This document shows, in pieces, positions 2,427 through 39,962 of a DNA stretch of 64,000 bases (position 1 is its first letter; every line of letters begins with the position of its first letter). A program made the translations under genes and the position numbers. The stretch lies in sequence record MK327944.1. One strand, written 5' to 3'. Below the pieces are notes generated by a model. The model saw nothing but the letters and a program-made list of their open reading frames with translations, made no database searches and was not told where the DNA came from. The stretch comes from Escherichia phage vB_EcoM_G2540-3.

Positions 2427-3281
2427 TCACAATGAAGAAAATTCTTTAACTAAAGCCTGTAATGAAGCCTCTATTGGATATCCATTCTTAACTAACATTT
2501 TCCTAAACATTACATGTTTAGGACGATTATATGATATCCACAATTCATACAATTTATCTTTATTATCCCAATGATAGCCTTTTCGTCGAGATGCTATATG
2601 AGCTTTTCTAATCTCCGGATTTTTCCAACTAGCAGCTACTGAATTTGATATAGCTATTTTATATTCAGGTTTTGATAAAGCAGCACGAACAGCCTTTTGG
2701 TGTTTAATTTTATTTTCTTCGTTATTAAACCATTCCCTTGAAGCAATTGAAATTTTTTGTTTTGTTTTAAAATTATTTAATCTTTCTTTGTTATCTTTCC
2801 TATTTTTTGCTACTGAAAAATATTTTAATGCCCTTTCTCTAGCAGCATTTCTATTTTGCGGATTTGAATAATACTGTTGAAGCCTTTTTGATATTGTGTC
2901 ACTTACATCTTGTTTTATAAAACTATATTCAGCAGCTATTAAATCAACTTCGGCTAAAGATAAATTTTTATATGTTTTTCCTGACATCATTCTATTTAAA
3001 GCATTTAGCATTTTTCCATTTTTACCTTTTGCTAATAAGAAATGTGCTTTAAAATGATTAAAATGACTTAAATTAACTAAATTCCATGTAGATTTTAAAT
3101 ATTCAGGAAATATTGATTTAGGAAGCACGTGGTGTGCTTCCGTTTTACCTGGAGTTTTAACAGTTGAATTCATAGAAATAAAATTAATGTAAGACTTGGC
3201 GTCTTCTTCACTCAACGCTAATTTTTCAACTAATTCCTTTATTAAAAATTCATCATTAATGTCAAGTTTAAAATTCTTCAC
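2427..3281 (-). CDS. HNH homing endonuclease-like protein (Mob family-like), 284 aa, GTG start
   Basis: HHVLPKS motif followed by NLVNLSHFNHFKAH (HNH-type His/Asn pattern); start codon is GTG overlapping stop of upstream ORF (GTGA); inserted between genes 47-side small ORFs and 46. Confidence 0.65.
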   Translation of the reverse strand: MKNFKLDINDEFLIKELVEKLALSEEDAKSYINFISMNSTVKTPGKTEAHHVLPKSIFPEYLKSTWNLVNLSHFNHFKAHFLLAKGKNGKMLNALNRMMSGKTYKNLSLAEVDLIAAEYSFIKQDVSDTISKRLQQYYSNPQNRNAARERALKYFSVAKNRKDNKERLNNFKTKQKISIASREWFNNEENKIKHQKAVRAALSKPEYKIAISNSVAASWKNPEIRKAHIASRRKGYHWDNKDKLYELWISYNRPKHVMFRKMLVKNGYPIEASLQALVKEFSSL

Positions 3282-3493: not shown

Positions 3494-3728
3494 CCTTAAT
3501 ACAAGATACAGCCATATCTCGTAATGATTTAGGTGTGTCATTATCTAAAATGTTGAAGTTAAAAGATACAGCCCAGTCAGTGCAGACTGTAACCTTTTTA
3601 ATACAATTATCTTCAACCTCTAACGGTTCAAACCAATATTCAATAATTTCTTTATGCCCAATATCATCTTTTACTTCGCATTCAAAATGCTGACTCATCA
3701 TAACATTTTTAAATTCATCAAAAGTCAT
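3465..3728 (-). CDS. Hypothetical protein, 87 aa
   Basis: ATGA overlap with gene 47 stop (coupled translation); acidic small protein. Confidence 0.4.
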   Translation of the reverse strand: MTFDEFKNVMMSQHFECEVKDDIGHKEIIEYWFEPLEVEDNCIKKVTVCTDWAVSFNFNILDNDTPKSLRDMAVSCIKDAYCEVFDI

Positions 3729-4744
3729 TGTGTTGCCTCTACATATAACTGATTTGCATATTGAATAAGTGCTTCACGGTCAGAATCAGTGATGTCTGGA
3801 ATTGCATTAATGTATTCTTCCATCAACGTCTGAAGAGATTGAACTTCAACTTCTTCACTGTCATCTGACTCGACAGAGTTATCAATCTTTGACACAACTC
3901 GTAATGAATGCACAACTTTTTCTAGTTCAGATTCGAACTTCGTCAGATTTTTGTCTACTTCAGTTACTATAACACGTACTGATAGATTTGTAAAATCTTT
4001 ATAGTCAATTTTTCCTTTAAACGGATAATGAATTCTACGATGCCAGGTAGTATTGTTTGGAATAAATTCCATTCGTTCTGTTTCTGTATCAAACATCCAG
4101 AACCCGCGAGGGTCATTCTCGTCACCTGCAGTTAGTGTCCATGGTGTCCCAATATATCTGACGTTAGCAGCCTCAGAGATAGTATGGAAGTGACCAGACC
4201 ACACTTCTTTATAAGTCTTAAGGAAATCAGGTTCAAGACCGTGAGATTTCATTCCTTTATAAAAATAAAATCCATTCAGTTCCCAGTGACCAACACAAAA
4301 AGAAGCAGAAGAAGTTTTTATGTGCTCGAGAATTTCACCAGTATTTTCTTCACACATCCAAGGAATTAAATCAATTAAACATCCGTCAAAATCTACTGTA
4401 GTAGGCTTATCATACACTTTAACATTAGGATATTTAGCCAAAAGCTCAGTAGAAGCATTTGGATGCATTACATTTTTGTAGTGGAGATCGTGATTTCCTA
4501 CAATAGTATGTAATGTGATTCCAGCGTCATCAAGCATTTGAACTATTTCACGGGCAAACTCCATAGTTTTATGTGTAATTGCTTTTCGCACATCAAAAAT
4601 ATCACCATATTGAATCCATACAGTAATTCCATTTTTCTTAGAATATTCTATCGCTTGCTTAATTCCATCAATTTGAATACCGCGAATCCACTCATCATCA
4701 GCTTTAACGCCTAAATGCCAATCACCCAAGTTTAGTATTTTCAT
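3725..4744 (-). CDS. 47: Recombination endonuclease subunit gp47 (Mre11/SbcD-like phosphoesterase), 339 aa
   Basis: Calcineurin-like phosphoesterase motifs GDWHLG, GDIFD, GNHD, GHWE; 339 aa equals T4 gp47; adjacent to gp46. Confidence 0.9.
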   Translation of the reverse strand: MKILNLGDWHLGVKADDEWIRGIQIDGIKQAIEYSKKNGITVWIQYGDIFDVRKAITHKTMEFAREIVQMLDDAGITLHTIVGNHDLHYKNVMHPNASTELLAKYPNVKVYDKPTTVDFDGCLIDLIPWMCEENTGEILEHIKTSSASFCVGHWELNGFYFYKGMKSHGLEPDFLKTYKEVWSGHFHTISEAANVRYIGTPWTLTAGDENDPRGFWMFDTETERMEFIPNNTTWHRRIHYPFKGKIDYKDFTNLSVRVIVTEVDKNLTKFESELEKVVHSLRVVSKIDNSVESDDSEEVEVQSLQTLMEEYINAIPDITDSDREALIQYANQLYVEATQ

Positions 4745-5345
4745 GGTGTCTTTTCCATCCTAATTTAGCTGCTTTTGAAACCAGTTCTTTAATTTTTCCT
4801 TTTGTCCATTCAGGACCAGGAGGTTCATGACATAACATTTGCTTAACTCCGTTATTATACCATTTTTTACCTTTATTATGTGATGAAGCTTTAAATTTAT
4901 TTGACCTTCCTTTTACATAACCTTCTGGAATATAAGGCAAAAAGGCAGATTTTCCTGTTAATGGATCATGTGAATGTATATTTCCTTTACAATTATGAGA
5001 ACCATATAATGGATGATTTTGTCCTTTATTATCTCTTCCAAATGAACCTTTTGGAGCAGCATATGACATATTAAAGAATAATGGATTTTTAACTGCATCA
5101 TGCAATCGTTGATAATATAACTCGCATTTAATAGCTTCTTCACGCGTATCAAATTCAGCTAAAATGCATGAATCAAATAAGTGAGGATTATCTGAAAGCT
5201 CTTTATTATAAATTTTCTTATACTTTTTAGATAAAACTGAACCATGATATCCAGCTAAATGCCTATCTAAAGACGTAGATCCAATATAAAAAGGAGGAAG
5301 TTTATCTCCGCTATATATTGTTAAATAAGTTATATATTTTTTCAT
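4722..5345 (-). CDS. GIY-YIG family homing endonuclease-like protein (Seg-like), 207 aa
   Basis: N-terminal YITYLTIY...FYIGST...R...GY.GS pattern typical of GIY-YIG module, basic C-terminal half; lies between a-gt and 47. Confidence 0.6.
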   Translation of the reverse strand: MKKYITYLTIYSGDKLPPFYIGSTSLDRHLAGYHGSVLSKKYKKIYNKELSDNPHLFDSCILAEFDTREEAIKCELYYQRLHDAVKNPLFFNMSYAAPKGSFGRDNKGQNHPLYGSHNCKGNIHSHDPLTGKSAFLPYIPEGYVKGRSNKFKASSHNKGKKWYNNGVKQMLCHEPPGPEWTKGKIKELVSKAAKLGWKRHHENTKLG

Positions 5346-5521: not shown

Positions 5522-6724
5522 TTATTTTGTAATAATGTCAAACTGTTCTTTAAAGCAGAAGCTTGAATCTTGATGCTGATACAAAAATTCATAAGCTTTT
5601 TCGCGTTCGCGGTCATAAAGAGTTCGGTCAGATGACAGTTCTTTAATACGTTCAAATGTTGATTCCATGTCATTTTCATCAAACCAAATGATACCGCTAT
5701 CATGCGAGGTCAAAGGAGTATTATCAACACGGAATTTTAAATTTTCGCCAGTAGATTTCCAAAATACCGGAATTGTTCCACATGCACCAAGCTCGAGATG
5801 AGTATATTCTAAAGAGCGCTGTAGATATTTTTTATCCAACTTACTCAACTGATAACCAAAACCGGATTTACTCATACGTTCAAGCATTTCGCTATTTACA
5901 TAACGGTCAAGAATTTGCGTTGGCAAATTAGGAGCAATTTTAATTTGGTCTACTTGATGAAGACGATAATACTCGTATGGAATTCCTTTTTCTTTAATAG
6001 GAATGAACGCTGGAGAACGTTCCAGACCTTCCATAATAGTACTTAGTCCTGCAGGTTTAAGATGTTTTTCATGAAAATCAAACATCTGATAAAAACCTTT
6101 CCATGTAGTCGTACGACCAATCCAACGGTTGATATTCATGTTAATTTCAGAAACATCTTTCCAGTAGGTTGATCGAACCTTCGCAATATCCATAGGAGGC
6201 TGAAAGTTATATACTGTCGGCGCTTCTTCAATATCATCAAACAGAGAAACTGTTTCCGGATACCATTCTTTCATCAGAACTTTATTAAAATCGCCATTAT
6301 CAGAATGGCTAAAAATAACATCAGCTCGACGAACAGTTTCTTCTAATCCCAAATTTCGACGCAAAGAAAGAGAAGAATGGTCATGCTGATAAACTACAAC
6401 ACGAACAGAAGGTTTAATGTTATCAATAATTTTTTTATAGTTATTAATAGTGTCTTCTTCAACCCAAGTAGCAGGAACTGAATTGATAATTAGAATATCA
6501 CAATCATTTACCAGCTTAAGTGTTTTATCGTATTCTTTTGCCAATAAAACCGGAATTGAAAATGATTTATAATCATGCGCGCAATTACGAGTAAATGATT
6601 TATCTTTAGCATAAACCAAAGTCACTTCATGACCATTTTTAATAAACCAATCACGTTGCTCGAGTGAGAATTTAGTTACACCACAACCTTCAAGACCTCG
6701 AGCCATAAAAATACATACTTTCAT
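5522..6724 (-). CDS. a-gt: DNA alpha-glucosyltransferase, 400 aa
   Basis: 400 aa; N-terminus MKVCIFMARGLEGCGVTKFSLEQRDWFIKNGHEVTLVYAKDKSF and C-terminus FCFKEQFDIITK match recalled T4 AGT nearly residue for residue. Confidence 0.9.
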   Translation of the reverse strand: MKVCIFMARGLEGCGVTKFSLEQRDWFIKNGHEVTLVYAKDKSFTRNCAHDYKSFSIPVLLAKEYDKTLKLVNDCDILIINSVPATWVEEDTINNYKKIIDNIKPSVRVVVYQHDHSSLSLRRNLGLEETVRRADVIFSHSDNGDFNKVLMKEWYPETVSLFDDIEEAPTVYNFQPPMDIAKVRSTYWKDVSEINMNINRWIGRTTTWKGFYQMFDFHEKHLKPAGLSTIMEGLERSPAFIPIKEKGIPYEYYRLHQVDQIKIAPNLPTQILDRYVNSEMLERMSKSGFGYQLSKLDKKYLQRSLEYTHLELGACGTIPVFWKSTGENLKFRVDNTPLTSHDSGIIWFDENDMESTFERIKELSSDRTLYDREREKAYEFLYQHQDSSFCFKEQFDIITK

Positions 6725-30723: not shown

Positions 30724-31140
30724 TTAAATGTAAATATTTTTGCCGTAATACTTATACCAGTGTGGCTTCATTAAAATTTTTTCATCGAGTCGTTGTTGAC
30801 TCAACTTAATAGCTGATTTGCATGGATTATAATCATTTTTCCATTCTACTGGAATATCGCTGATGTCAGGAACTTCAGTATCTTTTATACTGAACCCGCG
30901 TTTTAAGCATTCCGTTATAATGTCCGATTGACGCTTTCGCAAAAATTCTAACTTATCGTAAAAGAAAGTAACATGACCAGAACCTAAAATAAATTTAGAA
31001 GATATTTTAAAATCTTTAACGCGCTTACCGTTTGCCACATGCTTACGAACTATACCAAAAACACGCGGCAATTCACGGTATTCTGCGATTAAATGTTGAT
31101 CAGCAAGTTCAGATACTAAAGTCAAATTAATACGAGTCAT
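30724..31140 (-). CDS. denV: Endonuclease V (pyrimidine dimer DNA glycosylase), 138 aa
   Basis: 138 aa; [17 protein letters not shown]...[10 protein letters not shown] matches recalled T4 endo V with scattered substitutions. Confidence 0.9.
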
Positions 31141-31164
31141 TTTATCCCTCCAAGTAACTGTGAA

Positions 31165-31196
31165 TATACTATCACAATTCTAGGAGAAAGTAAACA
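31165..31196 (-). promoter_or_regulatory. T4-type early promoter upstream of denV
   Basis: Minus strand GTTTAC... TAGTATAT. Confidence 0.45.
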
Positions 31197-31199
31197 ACT

Positions 31200-31730
<531 letters not shown>

Positions 31731-35522: not shown

Positions 35523-35598
35523 TGGTCGAGGCAGTAGGGATCGAACCTACGACCCAGGACTTAGAAGGTCCTTGCTCTTCCTTCTGAGCTATGCCCCG
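35523..35598 (-). tRNA. tRNA-Arg (anticodon UCU), CCA encoded
   Basis: Hand-folded cloverleaf: acceptor CGGGGCA/TGCCTCG, anticodon loop CTTCTAA, T-arm GTAGG-TTCGATC-CCTAC. Confidence 0.75.
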
Positions 35599-35601
35599 TA
35601 A

Positions 35602-36267
35602 TTAAAATTTCATTTTTCGACCTTTAAACCATCCTTCTGGAATTGGGTCAGTTTTCTTAATACGTTTAGAAACTTTTTCATCTAATGAATGAATCCACAT
35701 CATACCAAATTGGGAATTCTTTTCGCCCTGTTGGTGTTTATTTCTGGCGTGAGATTCTTTCATTTTATTAATAGTTTCATCTGAATGGGACTTACCCAAG
35801 AAAGATTTAGTATTTGAAAATTTCTCTCTATACTTAGGATTATCCCAAAGCTGTTTAAACCTTTCTGAACCCATTTTACGATATTTTTCTTTAAGGTCTG
35901 GGTCGTTCTCAAATCTGGTTTTAAAAGCGGCAACTCCTTTTAAGGAAGCTTCTTTCTTTTTATCCAAATATTCTTTAGTGTTTAAATGGTCCCAACCACC
36001 TTCACCACCTAATTTCAAATTATAAACGTCAGGGCGCTTTAAAAACTCTTCAGTCACAATATTCTTTTCTGACTCAAACATAGAGGTTTTATCGTCAAAG
36101 AACTCTAATATTTCTTTAGAGAAATTTTCTATACCATACTTGTCTTGGGCTCTTTTTAATAATTTACCAGAACCCATATATCCATCATCTAAATTTTCGG
36201 TAGAATGAGCGCCTATATAGATTTTATTATTAATTTTATTTGTTATTTTATAAGTGTAATGGAACAT
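35602..36267 (-). CDS. segB: GIY-YIG homing endonuclease SegB-like, 221 aa
   Basis: GIY-YIG N-terminus YTYKITNKINNKIYIGAH; 221 aa; embedded in the tRNA cluster as in T4. Confidence 0.75.
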   Translation of the reverse strand: MFHYTYKITNKINNKIYIGAHSTENLDDGYMGSGKLLKRAQDKYGIENFSKEILEFFDDKTSMFESEKNIVTEEFLKRPDVYNLKLGGEGGWDHLNTKEYLDKKKEASLKGVAAFKTRFENDPDLKEKYRKMGSERFKQLWDNPKYREKFSNTKSFLGKSHSDETINKMKESHARNKHQQGEKNSQFGMMWIHSLDEKVSKRIKKTDPIPEGWFKGRKMKF

Positions 36268-36308
36268 AAATATCTCCTATTTCTAAGAGTATTTATGTTC
36301 CCAAAATA

Positions 36309-36380
36309 TGGCCCTGGGTGGAATTGAACCACCATCTGGCGATTATGAGTCGCTTGCTTGAACCTTCCAGCTACAGGGCC
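36309..36380 (-). tRNA. tRNA-Ile (anticodon CAU, Ile2/Met-type)
   Basis: Acceptor GGCCCTG/CAGGGCC, anticodon loop CTCATAA, T-loop GGTTCAATTCC; no encoded CCA. Confidence 0.7.
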
Positions 36381-36386
36381 TTGATA

Positions 36387-36459
36387 TGCTGATTGACGGA
36401 ATCGAACCGCCGACGTCCTCATTACAAGTGAGGTGCTCTACCTACTGAGCTAAATCAGC
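36387..36459 (-). tRNA. tRNA-Thr (anticodon UGU)
   Basis: Acceptor GCTGATT/AATCAGC, anticodon stem-loop CCTCA-CTTGTAA-TGAGG, T-loop GGTTCGATTCC. Confidence 0.8.
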
Positions 36460-36466
36460 GAAATTA

Positions 36467-36553
36467 CGGAGGCGATAGGATTTGAACCTATGAGTCGCCG
36501 GAGCGACTGCCGGTTTTCAAGACCGGTGCATTAAACCACTCTGCCACGCCTCC
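36467..36553 (-). tRNA. tRNA-Ser (anticodon UGA), long variable arm
   Basis: Acceptor GGAGGCG/CGCCTCC, anticodon loop CTTGAAA, extended variable arm, T-loop GGTTCAAATCC. Confidence 0.8.
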
Positions 36554-36555
36554 AG

Positions 36556-36629
36556 TCTCCATACAAGGATTTGAACCTTGGACCTCCTGATCCCAAATCA
36601 GGCGCTCTACCAAACTGAGCTACACGGAG
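36556..36629 (-). tRNA. tRNA-Pro (anticodon UGG)
   Basis: Anticodon stem-loop CCTGA-TTTGGGA-TCAGG, T-arm CAAGG-TTCAAAT-CCTTG. Confidence 0.75.
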
Positions 36630-36641
36630 TAAATTAAATTT

Positions 36642-36713
<72 letters not shown>

Positions 36714-36719
36714 AAACTT

Positions 36720-36806
36720 TGGTACGAGAAGTGGGACTCGAACCCACAAGGAAATCATTCCGCAGCATTTTAAGTGCTGTGCCTTTACCAATTTGACCAT
36801 TCTCGC
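36720..36806 (-). tRNA. tRNA-Leu (anticodon UAA), long variable arm, CCA encoded
   Basis: Anticodon stem-loop CAGCA-CTTAAAA-TGCTG, T-arm GTGGG-TTCGAGT-CCCAC, 3' ACCA; G1-U72 wobble in acceptor stem. Confidence 0.8.
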
Positions 36807-36807
36807 G

Positions 36808-36880
36808 CTGGGAATAAAGGACTCGAACCTTTGCATCCTGGAATCAAAATCCAGTGCCTTACCAACTTGGCTAATTCCCA
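36808..36880 (-). tRNA. tRNA-Gln (anticodon UUG)
   Basis: Acceptor TGGGAAT/ATTCCCA, anticodon stem-loop CTGGA-TTTTGAT-TCCAG, T-arm AAAGG-TTCGAGT-CCTTT; separated from tRNA-Leu by 1 nt. Confidence 0.8.
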
Positions 36881-36977: not shown

Positions 36978-37271
36978 TTACCATTTATGATAATACATAT
37001 TTACGATGCATTCAAGACCCAAAGGATTCTTGAAAATATCATATTCAAGAGGACCTTTTTCTGTTTCAATAAAGAAATCAAAATTTACTGTATTAAATTT
37101 ACGGTCTTCCTTTACTAATTTAACTTGAGAAGATGAACGGTCAATGTAAACCTTTTCAACTTCAAAACATGTTAAAATGCCATAATCATCAATCAAGGCT
37201 TTAGCTGCTTCTTGATCATATTTATATCCATTTTCAATGGATGATACTTTCGCATAAAGAATCATTATCAA
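36978..37271 (-). CDS. Hypothetical protein, 97 aa
   Basis: ORF upstream of tRNA cluster. Confidence 0.4.
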   Translation of the reverse strand: MIMILYAKVSSIENGYKYDQEAAKALIDDYGILTCFEVEKVYIDRSSSQVKLVKEDRKFNTVNFDFFIETEKGPLEYDIFKNPLGLECIVNMYYHKW

Positions 37272-37684
37272 CCTTCATCAACAATAGTGTGCGTATTGGC
37301 ATTAACTATTTGCCACCAATCAAAGCGATTAAAACCATACATCGGTTTGTTTTCATTTTCTTTGATAATGTCACGGAGTTCATCTTCGGTAGCGGCTTTC
37401 GCTATTAAATCAGCATATCCACCACGAGGATAATAATTATCACCTGCAAAAAGTAAAAAGTTTGGTGTAATATTATTGAACTCTTCAAGAGTAATAACTG
37501 TTCCTGATGGTAGTTGAACAATCTCTACATATTTATATCCCAATTTTTGAGCAGCATCTACTGCTTCAAGCAAAGTATCATGAGCCCGTCCTATTTGGCA
37601 ATTTGGCTTTTTAGATGGATTAGCCTGATAATCCGCGTACACTTTATACATTCTATTCACCTTTAGAAATTTTATCCATAACAA
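37268..37684 (-). CDS. Hypothetical protein, 138 aa
   Basis: ORF with 4-nt overlap to downstream ORF. Confidence 0.4.
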   Translation of the reverse strand: MLWIKFLKVNRMYKVYADYQANPSKKPNCQIGRAHDTLLEAVDAAQKLGYKYVEIVQLPSGTVITLEEFNNITPNFLLFAGDNYYPRGGYADLIAKAATEDELRDIIKENENKPMYGFNRFDWWQIVNANTHTIVDEG

Positions 37685-37838
37685 TAGCGATTAAACCAAT
37701 TAAAAATGCTACTACAAGTGAAAACACATTTTCTGCTGTAGTCAATAATCCGCATATAAATCCAACAAACATTGAAAAACTAAAAGCGGAAGCAGAAATT
37801 GCAATAGCAACATTTCGAATTAATTCACAACGTTTCAT
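37653..37838 (-). CDS. Small membrane protein, 61 aa
   Basis: Hydrophobic span; early promoter cassette upstream. Confidence 0.35.
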   Translation of the reverse strand: MKRCELIRNVAIAISASAFSFSMFVGFICGLLTTAENVFSLVVAFLIGLIAIVMDKISKGE

Positions 37839-37857
37839 TTTATTCTCCTCAGTAGTT

Positions 37858-37896
37858 GATAGGGTAATAATATCACCACCCTATCTAAAAGTAAAC
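37858..37896 (-). promoter_or_regulatory. T4-type early promoter with inverted repeat around -10
   Basis: GTTTAC -35; 8-bp inverted repeat GATAGGGT (37858-37865) / ACCCTATC (37878-37885). Confidence 0.45.
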
Positions 37897-38130
37897 TTAT
37901 TTTTTACGAAAAATTGATTTATATTTATCAGCCCATTTCTCGATGACTTTTTCTGGTCCATAGATAACAAAATAATCACCAAACTCTTCACCACCGAGCT
38001 GACCGAAATTATCTAATGCATCACGAAGAACTCCATGAGGCATTTCGCCCATTTTATCTTTCTTGCCAATGTAAATAAACTCAACTTTTACATCAGCAGC
38101 TTCAGCAATAAATTCTTGATAAGTTTTCAT
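37897..38130 (-). CDS. Internal protein (Ip)-like, with capsid targeting sequence MKTYQEFIAE (start assumed at second Met)
   Basis: N-terminus MKTYQEFIAE-A matches the T4 internal-protein capsid-targeting leader ending in the protease-site pattern (hydrophobic-x-E); own early promoter cassette. Confidence 0.55.
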   Translation of the reverse strand: MKTYQEFIAEAADVKVEFIYIGKKDKMGEMPHGVLRDALDNFGQLGGEEFGDYFVIYGPEKVIEKWADKYKSIFRKK

Positions 38131-38167
38131 TTTATTCTCCAATTTCACATTTGTTTTGATAGGGTAA

Positions 38168-38197
38168 TAGTATCACTACTAAAACCCCGTGTAAACA
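38168..38197 (-). promoter_or_regulatory. T4-type early promoter for Ip-like gene
   Basis: GTTTACA at 38190-38197 (minus), conserved GATAGGGTAATAGTATCACTAC block and TTTAAAATAATTTCACAAAGTTGTTTACA upstream region shared with 38497-38528. Confidence 0.5.
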
Positions 38198-38208
38198 ACT
38201 TTGTGAAA

Positions 38209-38466
38209 TTATTTTAAATCTTCTAATCGTTTCTTCATCTTAGAACCGTTCTTAGCGATTTCTCCTGCATCAGAGCATAATGCTAAAAGTGCTTTAACTT
38301 TAGTTTGGTCTCCTTTAAAAGATGAAGGATCGACTGCAGCAGCAAGTTCTTTAATACGAGAAAAAAGACGCTCAGCTTCAGCTAAAGCCATTCCAAGCTT
38401 TACTTCCATACCATGAGAAGATTCAGTGATAATAGTTTCTGTAGCAAACTCTTTGAAAGTTTTCAT
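38209..38466 (-). CDS. Internal protein (Ip)-like, with CTS-like leader MKTFKEFATE
   Basis: Leader MKTFKEFATE-T resembles CTS; own near-identical early promoter cassette. Confidence 0.5.
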   Translation of the reverse strand: MKTFKEFATETIITESSHGMEVKLGMALAEAERLFSRIKELAAAVDPSSFKGDQTKVKALLALCSDAGEIAKNGSKMKKRLEDLK

Positions 38467-38488
38467 TTTTATTTTCCTAATTAATTTT

Positions 38489-38528
38489 GATGAGGTAATA
38501 GTATCACTACCTCATCAGTATGTAAACA
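38489..38528 (-). promoter_or_regulatory. T4-type early promoter for Ip-like gene, with inverted repeat
   Basis: GTTTACA at 38521-38528; 9-bp inverted repeat GATGAGGTA (38489-38497) / TACCTCATC (38508-38516). Confidence 0.5.
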
Positions 38529-38539
38529 ACTTTGTGAAA

Positions 38540-39236
<697 letters not shown>

Positions 39237-39237
<1 letters not shown>

Positions 39238-39962
39238 TATAGTACCTTTAGTGTATTTTTAATTTTAGAAAAAAGTTCTTCAAGAGAACCATCGTTTGTA
39301 ATTACTAAATCGCCATCACGAATTGGCAATCCAGCTTCTGTAATATGTGTATCATTGGATTTTTGACCAGGACGAACTACATGAATTACTGTAGCACCCA
39401 TCGCCCTAGCCGCATCCATTTCATGATCTTGACGAGTATCAGGAACGATATAATAATCATAACCTGGGTTAAATTTATCAAGATAATCTAAAGCAAATAA
39501 TTTTACCCAATACATGCGGTCGAAGTTATTAACAATCAAATCCGTACCTAGGGCTTGCATAAGACGACGGACTGACCATTGGTCTTCAATATTATTTATA
39601 ACGTCAATAATCTTGTTAAATGCTACGGAATTAACTGATTCTTTTCCTTCGTCATCAAAAACAAACACGCCTTTAATTGGGCTTTTACTATTAAGATAGC
39701 AAAATGCTTGTTCCATAATCGTAATTACTTCTAATTTAGTCAGATTTAAATTAGTCTCACGATCATAGTCAATTCCTTCAAACTCTTTACGAGTTAAGCA
39801 AGGATAGTCAGTGTTTGCTGCGAATACGCCCCATGCATAAGCCAATGCATCTTTAATAGGACCAGCAAGTTGATATTTAACTGCAGAATAATTATTCATG
39901 ATAAAATCTGCAGTAGTATCTTTTCCACTACGCTTTACACCACTCAAAAAGATTAGTTTCAT
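39237..39962 (-). CDS. 1: Deoxynucleoside monophosphate kinase gp1, 241 aa
   Basis: P-loop GVKRSGKDT; 241 aa as T4 gp1. Confidence 0.9.

Follow-up and report, generated by a model that had tools for sequence, protein, structure and literature searches.

What are the two small genes that lie side by side between gene 57B and trna.4 in this phage, and what might their products do at the start of an infection? Within the 64-kb window (the whole stretch of DNA analysed), both ORFs lie on the minus strand, and the initial annotation had described them as internal-protein-like genes with capsid-targeting leaders. That description is correct: the ORF at 38209 to 38466 (85 amino acids, translation beginning MKTFKEFATETIITESSHG) and the ORF at 37897 to 38130 (77 amino acids, beginning MKTYQEFIAEAADV) match PHROG profiles at full coverage (PHROG 3499, E = 7.8e-50, and PHROG 8111, E = 1.8e-50) and belong to the families Ip5 and Ip6, respectively. 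The conserved left flank is 57B (38540 to 38995, minus strand), which encodes the anti-CBASS nuclease Acb1 (Pfam PF23474 Acb1, E = 2.6e-60) and whose DNA is 98.4% identical to T4 57B. The conserved right flank is trna.4 (37653 to 37838, minus strand; PHROG 1692), encoding a predicted membrane protein of 61 amino acids that carries no capsid-targeting sequence (CTS) and is so annotated in phages e11/2, GiZh, and T4. The synteny of 57B extends to the same three phages, and ip5 and ip6 thus occupy the slot that holds ipI in T4. The best genome match is e11/2 (97.6%), and the whole arrangement is common to 191 phage records. Anatomy, family membership, synteny, and exchange breakpoints are direct observations, and packaging, processing, ejection, and the timing of promoter use are inferences. 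The best overall explanation is a T2/T6-like Tequatrovirus whose “ipI” hyperplastic locus carries ip5 and ip6, a reading to which we give a probability of roughly 0.85.

Both genes were already known, and ip5 and ip6 are the correct names for the two ORFs. The ip5 product falls in the same 90% cluster as UniProt Q38630, “Ip5” of T6, and its identity to Ip5 of T2, RB70 (Q38378), and the cluster containing T6 Ip5 is 94 to 98%. Across about 250 phage records Ip5 is 95 to 99% identical, and about 230 other phages have a 50%-identical paralogue at their second IP locus; in the phage of the window, that second locus (denV-e) is empty. Ip6 is 75 to 100% identical to named Ip6 proteins, the name being used in vB_EcoM-VR7, VR20, and VR25, and related records annotate the gene pair as Ip5/Ip6 or ipV/ipVI. 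Compared with Ip5 and Ip6 of T-even phages, the proteins, locus, order, and flanks are the same, and the differences are only allelic, e.g., E10 for K10 in the Ip5 leader. The start of ip6 should be the ATG at 38130, which has GGAG 7 nt upstream, and not the GTG at 38148 to which the mechanical ORF reaches back.

The initial annotation had placed a near-duplicate early promoter before each gene, and this was confirmed by direct repeats at 38130 to 38224 and 38461 to 38555, which share 77% identity over 95 nt and contain T4-early-type promoters and hairpins. Cassette 1 (38467 to 38539, minus strand) consists of an AT-rich upstream stretch, a –35 element (GTTTAC, 38527 to 38522), a 17-nt spacer, TG plus the –10 element (TACTAT, 38503 to 38498), a hairpin, and the Shine-Dalgarno sequence AGGA. 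Its hairpin (38488 to 38517) encloses the spacer and –10 and folds at –20.2 kcal/mol (z = –4.5 versus shuffled sequence), and an equivalent element is also found upstream of T4 ipI. Cassette 2 (38131 to 38208, minus strand) has its –35 (TTTACA) at 38195 to 38190, TG plus –10 (TACTAT) at 38172 to 38167, and the Shine-Dalgarno sequence GGAG; an inner hairpin (38161 to 38188) and an outer stem (38140 to 38211) give a fold of –25.9 kcal/mol (z = –5.6 versus shuffled sequence). In the promoter scan both cassettes read TTTACA-17-TACTAT with TG upstream, and 50 of 60 positions match across the stop codon, AT-rich stretch, –35, spacer, and –10. The repeat even extends into the final codons of the upstream ORFs, 57B ending in DDLK and Ip5 in EDLK before the stop. 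The earlier inventory of two cassettes stands, but it left out a third, which lies within the range it covered (37653 to 38528): cassette 3 (37839 to 37896, minus strand) precedes trna.4, with –35 TTTACT at 37895 to 37890, TG plus –10 TATTAT at 37872 to 37867, and a hairpin at 37858 to 37885, and marks the limit of recombination on the right side of the slot.

The general form of these promoters, GTTTAC-N17-TGnTAYTAT with spacer and –10 inside a hairpin, is of the T4-early type; T4 early promoters are described as UP/–35/TGn/–10 promoters (PMC2988021), and by analogy those of the window would be used early. In related loci the stem sequence varies and the pairing around –10 is retained. The hairpins were also considered as intrinsic terminators, a role that was rejected because they have no U-tract and a scan returned no terminator-like site. 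A late promoter (TATAAATA) was sought directly upstream of ip5 and ip6 and was not found there; the nearest upstream late-promoter consensus on the same strand is located inside gene 1 (39593 to 39600). The early promoter alone does not account for a late supply of enough protein for packaging.

The boundaries of exchange were located by comparing the window with T4, T2, and IMG/VR contigs. T4 homology stops at 38443 (ip5 codon 8) and restarts at 37876, and T2 is collinear to 38094 (ip6 codon 12) and then again from 37896. Locus L036 shows an exact absence of ip5, and L035 has other cargo within the same boundaries, with homology back at 37896. By these comparisons, one breakpoint of exchange falls where the leader ends and the other at the –35 of the following cassette. 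Across 36 IMG/VR loci the slot holds 0 to 4 CTS ORFs, and clustering of 63 CTS ORFs (from the 36 loci and the window, four of them outside the slot) yielded 20 unrelated families. A module would comprise a hairpin-embedded T4-early-type promoter, a Shine-Dalgarno sequence, about 8 to 12 conserved CTS codons, and an unrelated cargo domain, and the repeated promoter-plus-leader units would provide the short stretches of homology through which cargo genes are exchanged, lost, or gained among T-even phages. The breakpoints bear out the modular shuffling behind a promoter-plus-leader unit that had been proposed from the initial annotation, and the idea is also found in the literature: Repoila et al. 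(1994) described the polymorphism of the locus together with its promoter/stem-loop elements, and the review by Arbiol et al. (2010) states that Repoila et al. saw such elements at both IP loci. The genes, leader, cassettes, and shuffling model were published between 1994 and 2014 and the Ip6-family function was reported in 2025, and the locus holds nothing new in kind.

A six-frame scan of the whole 64 kb with the pattern MK[TSA][YFWL]x[EDQ][FYLI]xx[ED] returned the ip5 and ip6 ORFs only. Both leaders begin MKT[Y/F]xEF, which includes the targeting residues 4 and 7. The Ip6 leader MKTYQEFIAE (codons 1 to 10, 38101 to 38130) is identical at 10 of 10 positions to those of T4 IPII and IPIII; the Ip5 leader (codons 1 to 15, 38422 to 38466) reads MKTFKEFATETIITE and has MKTFKEF in common with T4 IPI. 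Published work assigns CTS targeting to residues 4 and 7, processing to residues 8 and 10, and cleavage to an L/I-x-E rule (PMC9026906), and the known cleavage sites of T4 IPI, IPII, and IPIII are the only [LI]xE motifs in those proteins. This motif of the prohead protease gp21 closes both leaders, as IAE10 in Ip6 and ITE15 in Ip5, and it occurs within the first 25 residues of 58 of the 61 distinct CTS proteins (57 of the 61 are from the ipI-slot locus). The initial annotation had assumed cleavage after E10 in both proteins. For Ip6 this agrees with the predicted cut between IAE10 and A11, the counterpart of the site in T4 IPII and IPIII, whereas for Ip5 it puts the site five residues too early. 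Judging from its sequence, Ip5 would most likely be cleaved after ITE15; cleavage after E10 is unlikely because residue 10 is K in T2-type variants (E or K among the five sequences compared), P3 is Ala, and I13-T14-E15 is invariant in all five. Ip5 contains two more [LI]xE sites, LAE30 and IKE40, within the predicted first helix, and if gp21 cut at these there would be no 70-amino-acid Ip5 effector. These two sites would have been anomalous had internal gp21 sites been depleted in the cargo domains of internal proteins, but the idea was dropped, as the 35 internal [LI]xE motifs observed against 39.6 expected amount to no depletion.

By analogy with T4, the leader would carry each protein into the prohead scaffolding core, gp21 would then remove it, and the mature protein would be ejected together with the DNA; being ejected in this way, it would be able to act before any phage gene expression. 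No phage counter-defence factors other than internal proteins are present in the cell when the DNA enters, which puts them at the front of the response to restriction of modified DNA. Mature Ip5 (after E15) would have 70 residues and a pI of about 9.2, and its AF2 model is a two-helix hairpin (pLDDT 74). Mature Ip6 would have 67 residues and a pI of about 6.8, and is modelled as a ferredoxin-like β-α-β-β-α-β fold (pLDDT 85). The predicted folds differ and BLASTP of mature Ip5 against mature Ip6 gives no alignment at E ≤ 100, in agreement with the earlier impression that the mature parts are unrelated to each other. Against mature Ip1, Ip2, and Ip3, the best BLASTP E-values were 5.4 to 8.7, outside the range taken as homology; structure comparison of the predicted Ip5 and Ip6 folds yielded generic matches only, and Pfam, PADLOC, and PDB sequence searches returned nothing significant for either protein.

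The function of Ip6 is indicated by phage KarlGJung (Bas37), in which bas37_0260 is the ORF at the Ip6 position adjoining trna.4. The Ip6 of the window is its orthologue, 81% identical along the entire protein (77 of 77 residues) and with the same length, leader, and position. According to the HIDEN-SEQ preprint (November 2025, doi 10.1101/2025.11.20.689424), the Bas37_0260 knockout is specifically sensitive to McrBC. On the basis of this 81%-identical homologue from a preprint, the most likely role of Ip6 is to block McrBC, a type IV restriction enzyme of the host, an activity that is putative for the allele in the window. Since the 15 of 77 residues that differ are clustered at 46 to 62 and 68 to 70 (strands 3 and 4 and the last helix), the specificity of Ip6 may differ from that of Bas37_0260. 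The anti-restriction role suggested by the initial annotation is thus upheld for Ip6 through an experiment on its homologue, with McrBC rather than GmrSD as the target, and the statement that the activities are unknown is out of date for this family. McrBC can attack hydroxymethylcytosine that is left unglucosylated under T2/T6-type glucosylation. The closest relative, e11/2, has a T2/T6-type beta-alpha-glucosyltransferase in place of beta-gt, as does Bas37; IMG/VR pattern scans for an association of Ip6 with beta-alpha-gt rather than beta-gt, with a small sample of five contigs each, found beta-alpha-gt in both Ip6-bearing contigs and also in one without Ip6. The beta-gt or beta-alpha-gt gene of the phage analysed here and its gp21 gene both lie outside the 64-kb window.

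For bas37_0261 (Ip5), the searched passages of the HIDEN-SEQ preprint describe no phenotype. All three of Ip1, Ip2, and Ip3 enter the cell by injection and inhibit type IV enzymes (Silas et al. 2025). Ip5 probably also inhibits an early-acting defence once injected. We tentatively suggest that this may be a defence other than GmrSD or McrBC, not yet linked to internal proteins; the near-invariance of Ip5, set against the turnover of Ip6 and of the other cargo in the slot, would then reflect a conserved host target. Ip5 is well defined and very widespread, so that a directed screen for its target is reasonable, and the practical value of the present analysis lies in annotating both ORFs as Ip5 and Ip6.

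Alternatively, Ip5 and Ip6 could both inhibit particular GmrSD-family type IV enzymes, each for its own subtype. T4 IPI, in its mature form, inhibits GmrSD from CT596, and IPII and IPIII inhibit GmrSD from ECOR21 and ECOR17; Silas et al. (2025) found that each of the three blocks one GmrSD variant and proposed the same role for all genes of both IP loci, and GmrSD diversity is very large. IPI has the packaging leader, gp21 logic, and genomic slot in common with Ip5 and Ip6, and IPII and IPIII have the leader and gp21 logic; all are small and, for Ip5 and Ip6 by presumption, ejected proteins directed against type IV restriction. However, the mature domains have no sequence similarity to Ip1 to Ip3, and when ip4 to ip10 were set against the anti-T-even-active systems among 15 GmrSD group representatives, no reproducible interaction was reported. 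Moreover, GmrSD of ECOR21 and ECOR17 restricts T2 and T6 although both phages have Ip5, and the preprint maps the Ip6 homologue genetically to McrBC. A GmrSD-directed role for the pair is therefore unlikely.

A mainly structural role in the head for Ip5, and perhaps for Ip6, as core or scaffold cargo or as a DNA-associated counter-ion with no specific host target, is doubtful too. The basic pI and the 95 to 99% identity of Ip5 would suit such a role, as would published head-assembly aberrations in T4 IPIII mutants, copurification of internal proteins with gp22, and contacts of internal-protein lysines with DNA phosphates; with denV-e empty, the window shows no small internal proteins besides Ip5 and Ip6. 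Nevertheless, the slot carries 0 to 4 unrelated cargos in relatives, some having none, which speaks against any essential role in head structure; the pI of Ip6 is close to neutral, and the phenotype of its homologue is host specific. T4 IP0 propagates normally. In this strain all three IP genes carry amber mutations, and it has been isolated and studied. That the ORFs encode ordinary early cytoplasmic proteins, unpackaged and with leader-like N termini as a by-product of promoter/leader recombination, is very improbable: only early-type promoters are recognizable directly upstream and a literature search found no direct virion data for Ip5 or Ip6, but a 10-residue CTS, unchanged in Ip6, suffices to package foreign proteins, the cleavage motif is kept in nearly all leader-bearing ORFs, and targeting residues 4 and 7 are retained even where the DNA has diverged.

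The cassettes of the ipI slot resemble the promoter-early stem-loops (PeSLs) of RB49/phi1 and other T4-like phages, which are likewise repeated promoter plus stem-loop units that flank variable small genes and act as recombination sites for module exchange (Arbiol et al. 2010; Comeau et al. 2014). PeSLs combine a near-perfect sigma-70 consensus promoter (TTGACA-N17-TATAAT) with a G/C-rich terminator stem that precedes it, whereas the window cassettes have the T4-early form GTTTAC...TGnTAYTAT and an AT-rich stem that overlaps the –10 and has no U-tract, so that under a strict definition they fall outside the PeSL class. Unlike in PeSLs, the conserved unit of the window also takes in the coding leader. 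Arbiol et al. (2010) regarded the T-even IP elements as analogues, not homologues, of PeSLs.

The window is a portion of a Tequatrovirus (T4-like) genome, and both internal protein (IP) ORFs of the initial annotation, ip5 (38209-38466) and ip6 (37897-38130), are present on the minus strand, as are all genes surrounding them. The order is gene 1 (dNMP kinase, 39237-39962), 57A (38995-39237), 57B (38540-38995), ip5, ip6, and trna.4 (37653-37838), followed by trna.3, trna.2, and a cluster of eight tRNA genes (35523-36880); the T4 counterpart of this 57B-trna.4 slot is ipI. RefSeq records name 57B "RNA ligase"; it hits the Pfam family Acb1 (anti-CBASS nuclease) at E = 2.6e-60, which places another counter-defence gene immediately upstream of the slot. 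In a megablast search, the region 37200-39000 matched 808 phage records, 191 with query coverage of 80% or more; the best match (97.6%) is e11/2 (vB_EcoM_112), in which the two ORFs are labelled "Ip5" and "Ip6" (ipV and ipVI in phage GiZh). The observation is thus confirmed and its interpretation essentially right, with three corrections: the Ip5 cleavage site, a third promoter cassette, and McrBC in place of GmrSD as the likely target of the Ip6 family. Everything of substance on the locus is already published, making it a routine and well-characterized part of T-even genomes. The tRNA cluster is interrupted, as in T4, by the homing endonuclease gene segB (35602-36267, minus strand); GiZh has 10 tRNA genes and no segB at that place.

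The capsid-targeting sequences (CTSs) proposed for both proteins are borne out. Ip6 starts with MKTYQEFIAE/A, identical to the ten-residue CTS of T4 IPII and IPIII, and Ip5 starts with MKTFKEF, as does T4 IPI. When all six frames of the window were scanned for this leader motif, it occurred in ip5 and ip6 only. The second IP locus, between denV (30724-31140) and the lysozyme gene e (31200-31694), harbors ipII and ipIII in T4 and is empty here (59 nt, 31141-31199, with one early-promoter-like cassette), so that no CTS protein other than Ip5 and Ip6 is encoded in the window. Their mature parts have no detectable similarity to each other, as had been supposed, or to the T4 internal proteins. The 85-residue Ip5 aligns over its full length with PHROG 3499 ("internal head protein"), is 94 to 96% identical to Ip5 of T2 and RB70, and its exact sequence shares a 90% cluster with "Ip5" of T6 (UniProt Q38630). 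The 77-residue Ip6 matches PHROG 8111 ("internal virion protein"), and its name is already in use in phages VR7, VR20, and VR25. By tblastn, Ip6 was found in 250 phage records, mostly at 75 to 100% identity, and Ip5 in 268 at no less than 80%. A 50%-identical Ip5 paralogue adjoins gene e in 228 further records (e.g., NC_031103 and MN850590), indicating that this cargo has moved between the two IP loci. AlphaFold2 models from shallow alignments comprise a two-helix hairpin for Ip5 (residues 17-44 and 54-84, pLDDT 74) and a β-α-β-β-α-β domain for Ip6 (pLDDT 85); fold searches with both gave generic matches only.

Mechanically, the ip6 ORF extends through 38131-38148 to a GTG at 38148 (83 residues); this form is the one annotated in RefSeq e11/2, and some ENA calls reach 98 residues. 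Such longer forms would bury the N-terminal CTS; the functional start is the ATG at 38130, which GGAG precedes.

The prohead protease gp21 cleaves L/I-x-E motifs behind the Glu; within the CTS, targeting is determined by positions 4 and 7 and processing by positions 8 and 10 (PMC9026906). In each of T4 IPI, IPII, and IPIII, the sole [LI]xE of the whole protein is the known cleavage site. Ip6 likewise contains exactly one, IAE10, in keeping with the cleavage first proposed, whereas the corresponding proposal for Ip5 does not hold: the P3 position of ATE10 is Ala, T2-type variants have Lys as residue 10, and I13-T14-E15 never varies, not even where a variant's leader is shorter. We therefore predict from these sequences that Ip5 is cleaved after E15, yielding a 70-residue mature form. 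Ip5 also contains LAE30 and IKE40, which are only a caveat, since IP cargo domains show no overall depletion of internal [LI]xE motifs (35 observed versus 39.6 expected). Each mature protein has a mass of 7.5 to 7.7 kDa and, by analogy with the T4 paradigm, would be packaged, processed, and ejected. The gp21 gene lies beyond the window end, which falls around gene 17.

The cassettes preceding ip5 (38467-38539) and ip6 (38131-38208) are direct repeats, as the near-duplication described initially implies, sharing 77% identity across 95 nt and, within the core, 50 of 60 positions; a third, shorter copy, previously overlooked, precedes trna.4 (37839-37896). In all copies, an AT-rich stretch leads into GTTTAC, 17 nt of spacer, and a TG-extended -10 (TACTAT or TATTAT), which is the UP/-35/TGn/-10 architecture known for T4 early promoters (PMC2988021). 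Spacer and -10 sit within an inverted repeat whose predicted folding is considerably more stable than that of shuffled controls (z = -4.5, -5.6, and -2.6); no copy has a U-tract after the hairpin, and no terminator-like site was found. The repeat also takes in the final codons of the ORFs upstream, which end in DDLK (57B) and EDLK (Ip5). In related loci, a hairpin over the -10 is usual wherever such a promoter occurs and the stem sequences differ, so that pairing rather than sequence is conserved. Upstream of ip5 and ip6 on the minus strand, the nearest late-promoter consensus is in gene 1. Two exact late consensus sequences (TATAAATA; 37219-37226 and 37530-37537, minus strand) lie inside trna.2 and trna.3, both within a perfect repeat of 13 nt (plus strand, CATATTTATATCC) upstream of the tRNA genes.

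Breakpoints agree with the suggested shuffling of cargo behind a conserved promoter and leader. Homology to T4 (98%) runs from 57B through the first cassette to ip5 codon 8 (38443), stops, and restarts at 37876 within the third. T2 is collinear across ip5 and the second cassette to ip6 codon 12 (38094), then encodes a different 102-residue CTS protein, and homology (99%) returns at 37896, the -35 of the third cassette. Among IMG/VR contigs, one (L036) precisely lacks ip5, and another (L035) has the 102-residue cargo alone between the same two boundaries. In a survey of 36 loci located via 57B, 0 to 4 CTS ORFs occupy the slot; the 63 CTS ORFs detected in these loci plus the window, including four outside the slot, cluster into 20 families with unrelated mature parts. 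An Ip6 allele in contig 3300010279_000005 (3866-4099) has the hybrid leader MKTFKEFIAE, an IPI-type first half joined to an IPII/III-type cleavage site, which suggests a crossover within the CTS coding region. This modular-exchange picture is already in the literature: Arbiol et al. (2010) credit Repoila et al. (1994) with observing elements like PeSLs (promoter-early stem-loops) at the two highly variable T-even IP loci, built on T4 early promoters and having AT-rich stem-loops that are weaker, and give more than 30 known IP variants; Comeau et al. (2014) extended PeSLs to the T4/PST pair.

As for function, the initial annotation had put both proteins forward as candidate injected anti-defence effectors, pointing to T4 IPI as a type IV anti-restriction factor and to GmrSD or other type IV systems. 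T4 Ip1, Ip2, and Ip3 are inhibitors of one GmrSD-type enzyme each, reproducible inhibition of active GmrSD variants was not obtained with ip4-10, and the ECOR21 and ECOR17 enzymes restrict T2 and T6, both Ip5 carriers (PMC12373910). In the HIDEN-SEQ preprint (November 2025), the CTS-bearing gene bas37_0260, which phage Bas37 (KarlGJung) carries at its ipI locus, is needed on K-12 BW25113 and dispensable on a strain without McrA, McrBC, and Mrr, and its deletion renders the phage specifically McrBC sensitive. This gene is a 77-residue ORF adjoining trna.4, its product is 81% identical to the window Ip6, and bas37_0261 is Ip5 (98%). For Ip6, the anti-restriction proposal is backed by the experiments on this homologue, with McrBC rather than GmrSD as the likely target. 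The T2/T6 system (alpha-gt plus beta-alpha-gt) leaves part of the hydroxymethylcytosine unglucosylated, and such DNA is open to McrBC attack, which provides a rationale for an McrBC inhibitor. beta-alpha-gt is present in e11/2 and, according to the preprint, in Bas37; the only glucosyltransferase gene in the window is alpha-gt (5522-6724), the beta-gt slot being outside it. Gene 47 (3725-4744) has a homing/HNH endonuclease ORF on either side (2427-3281 and 4722-5345, minus strand); one separates it from gene 46, the other from alpha-gt.
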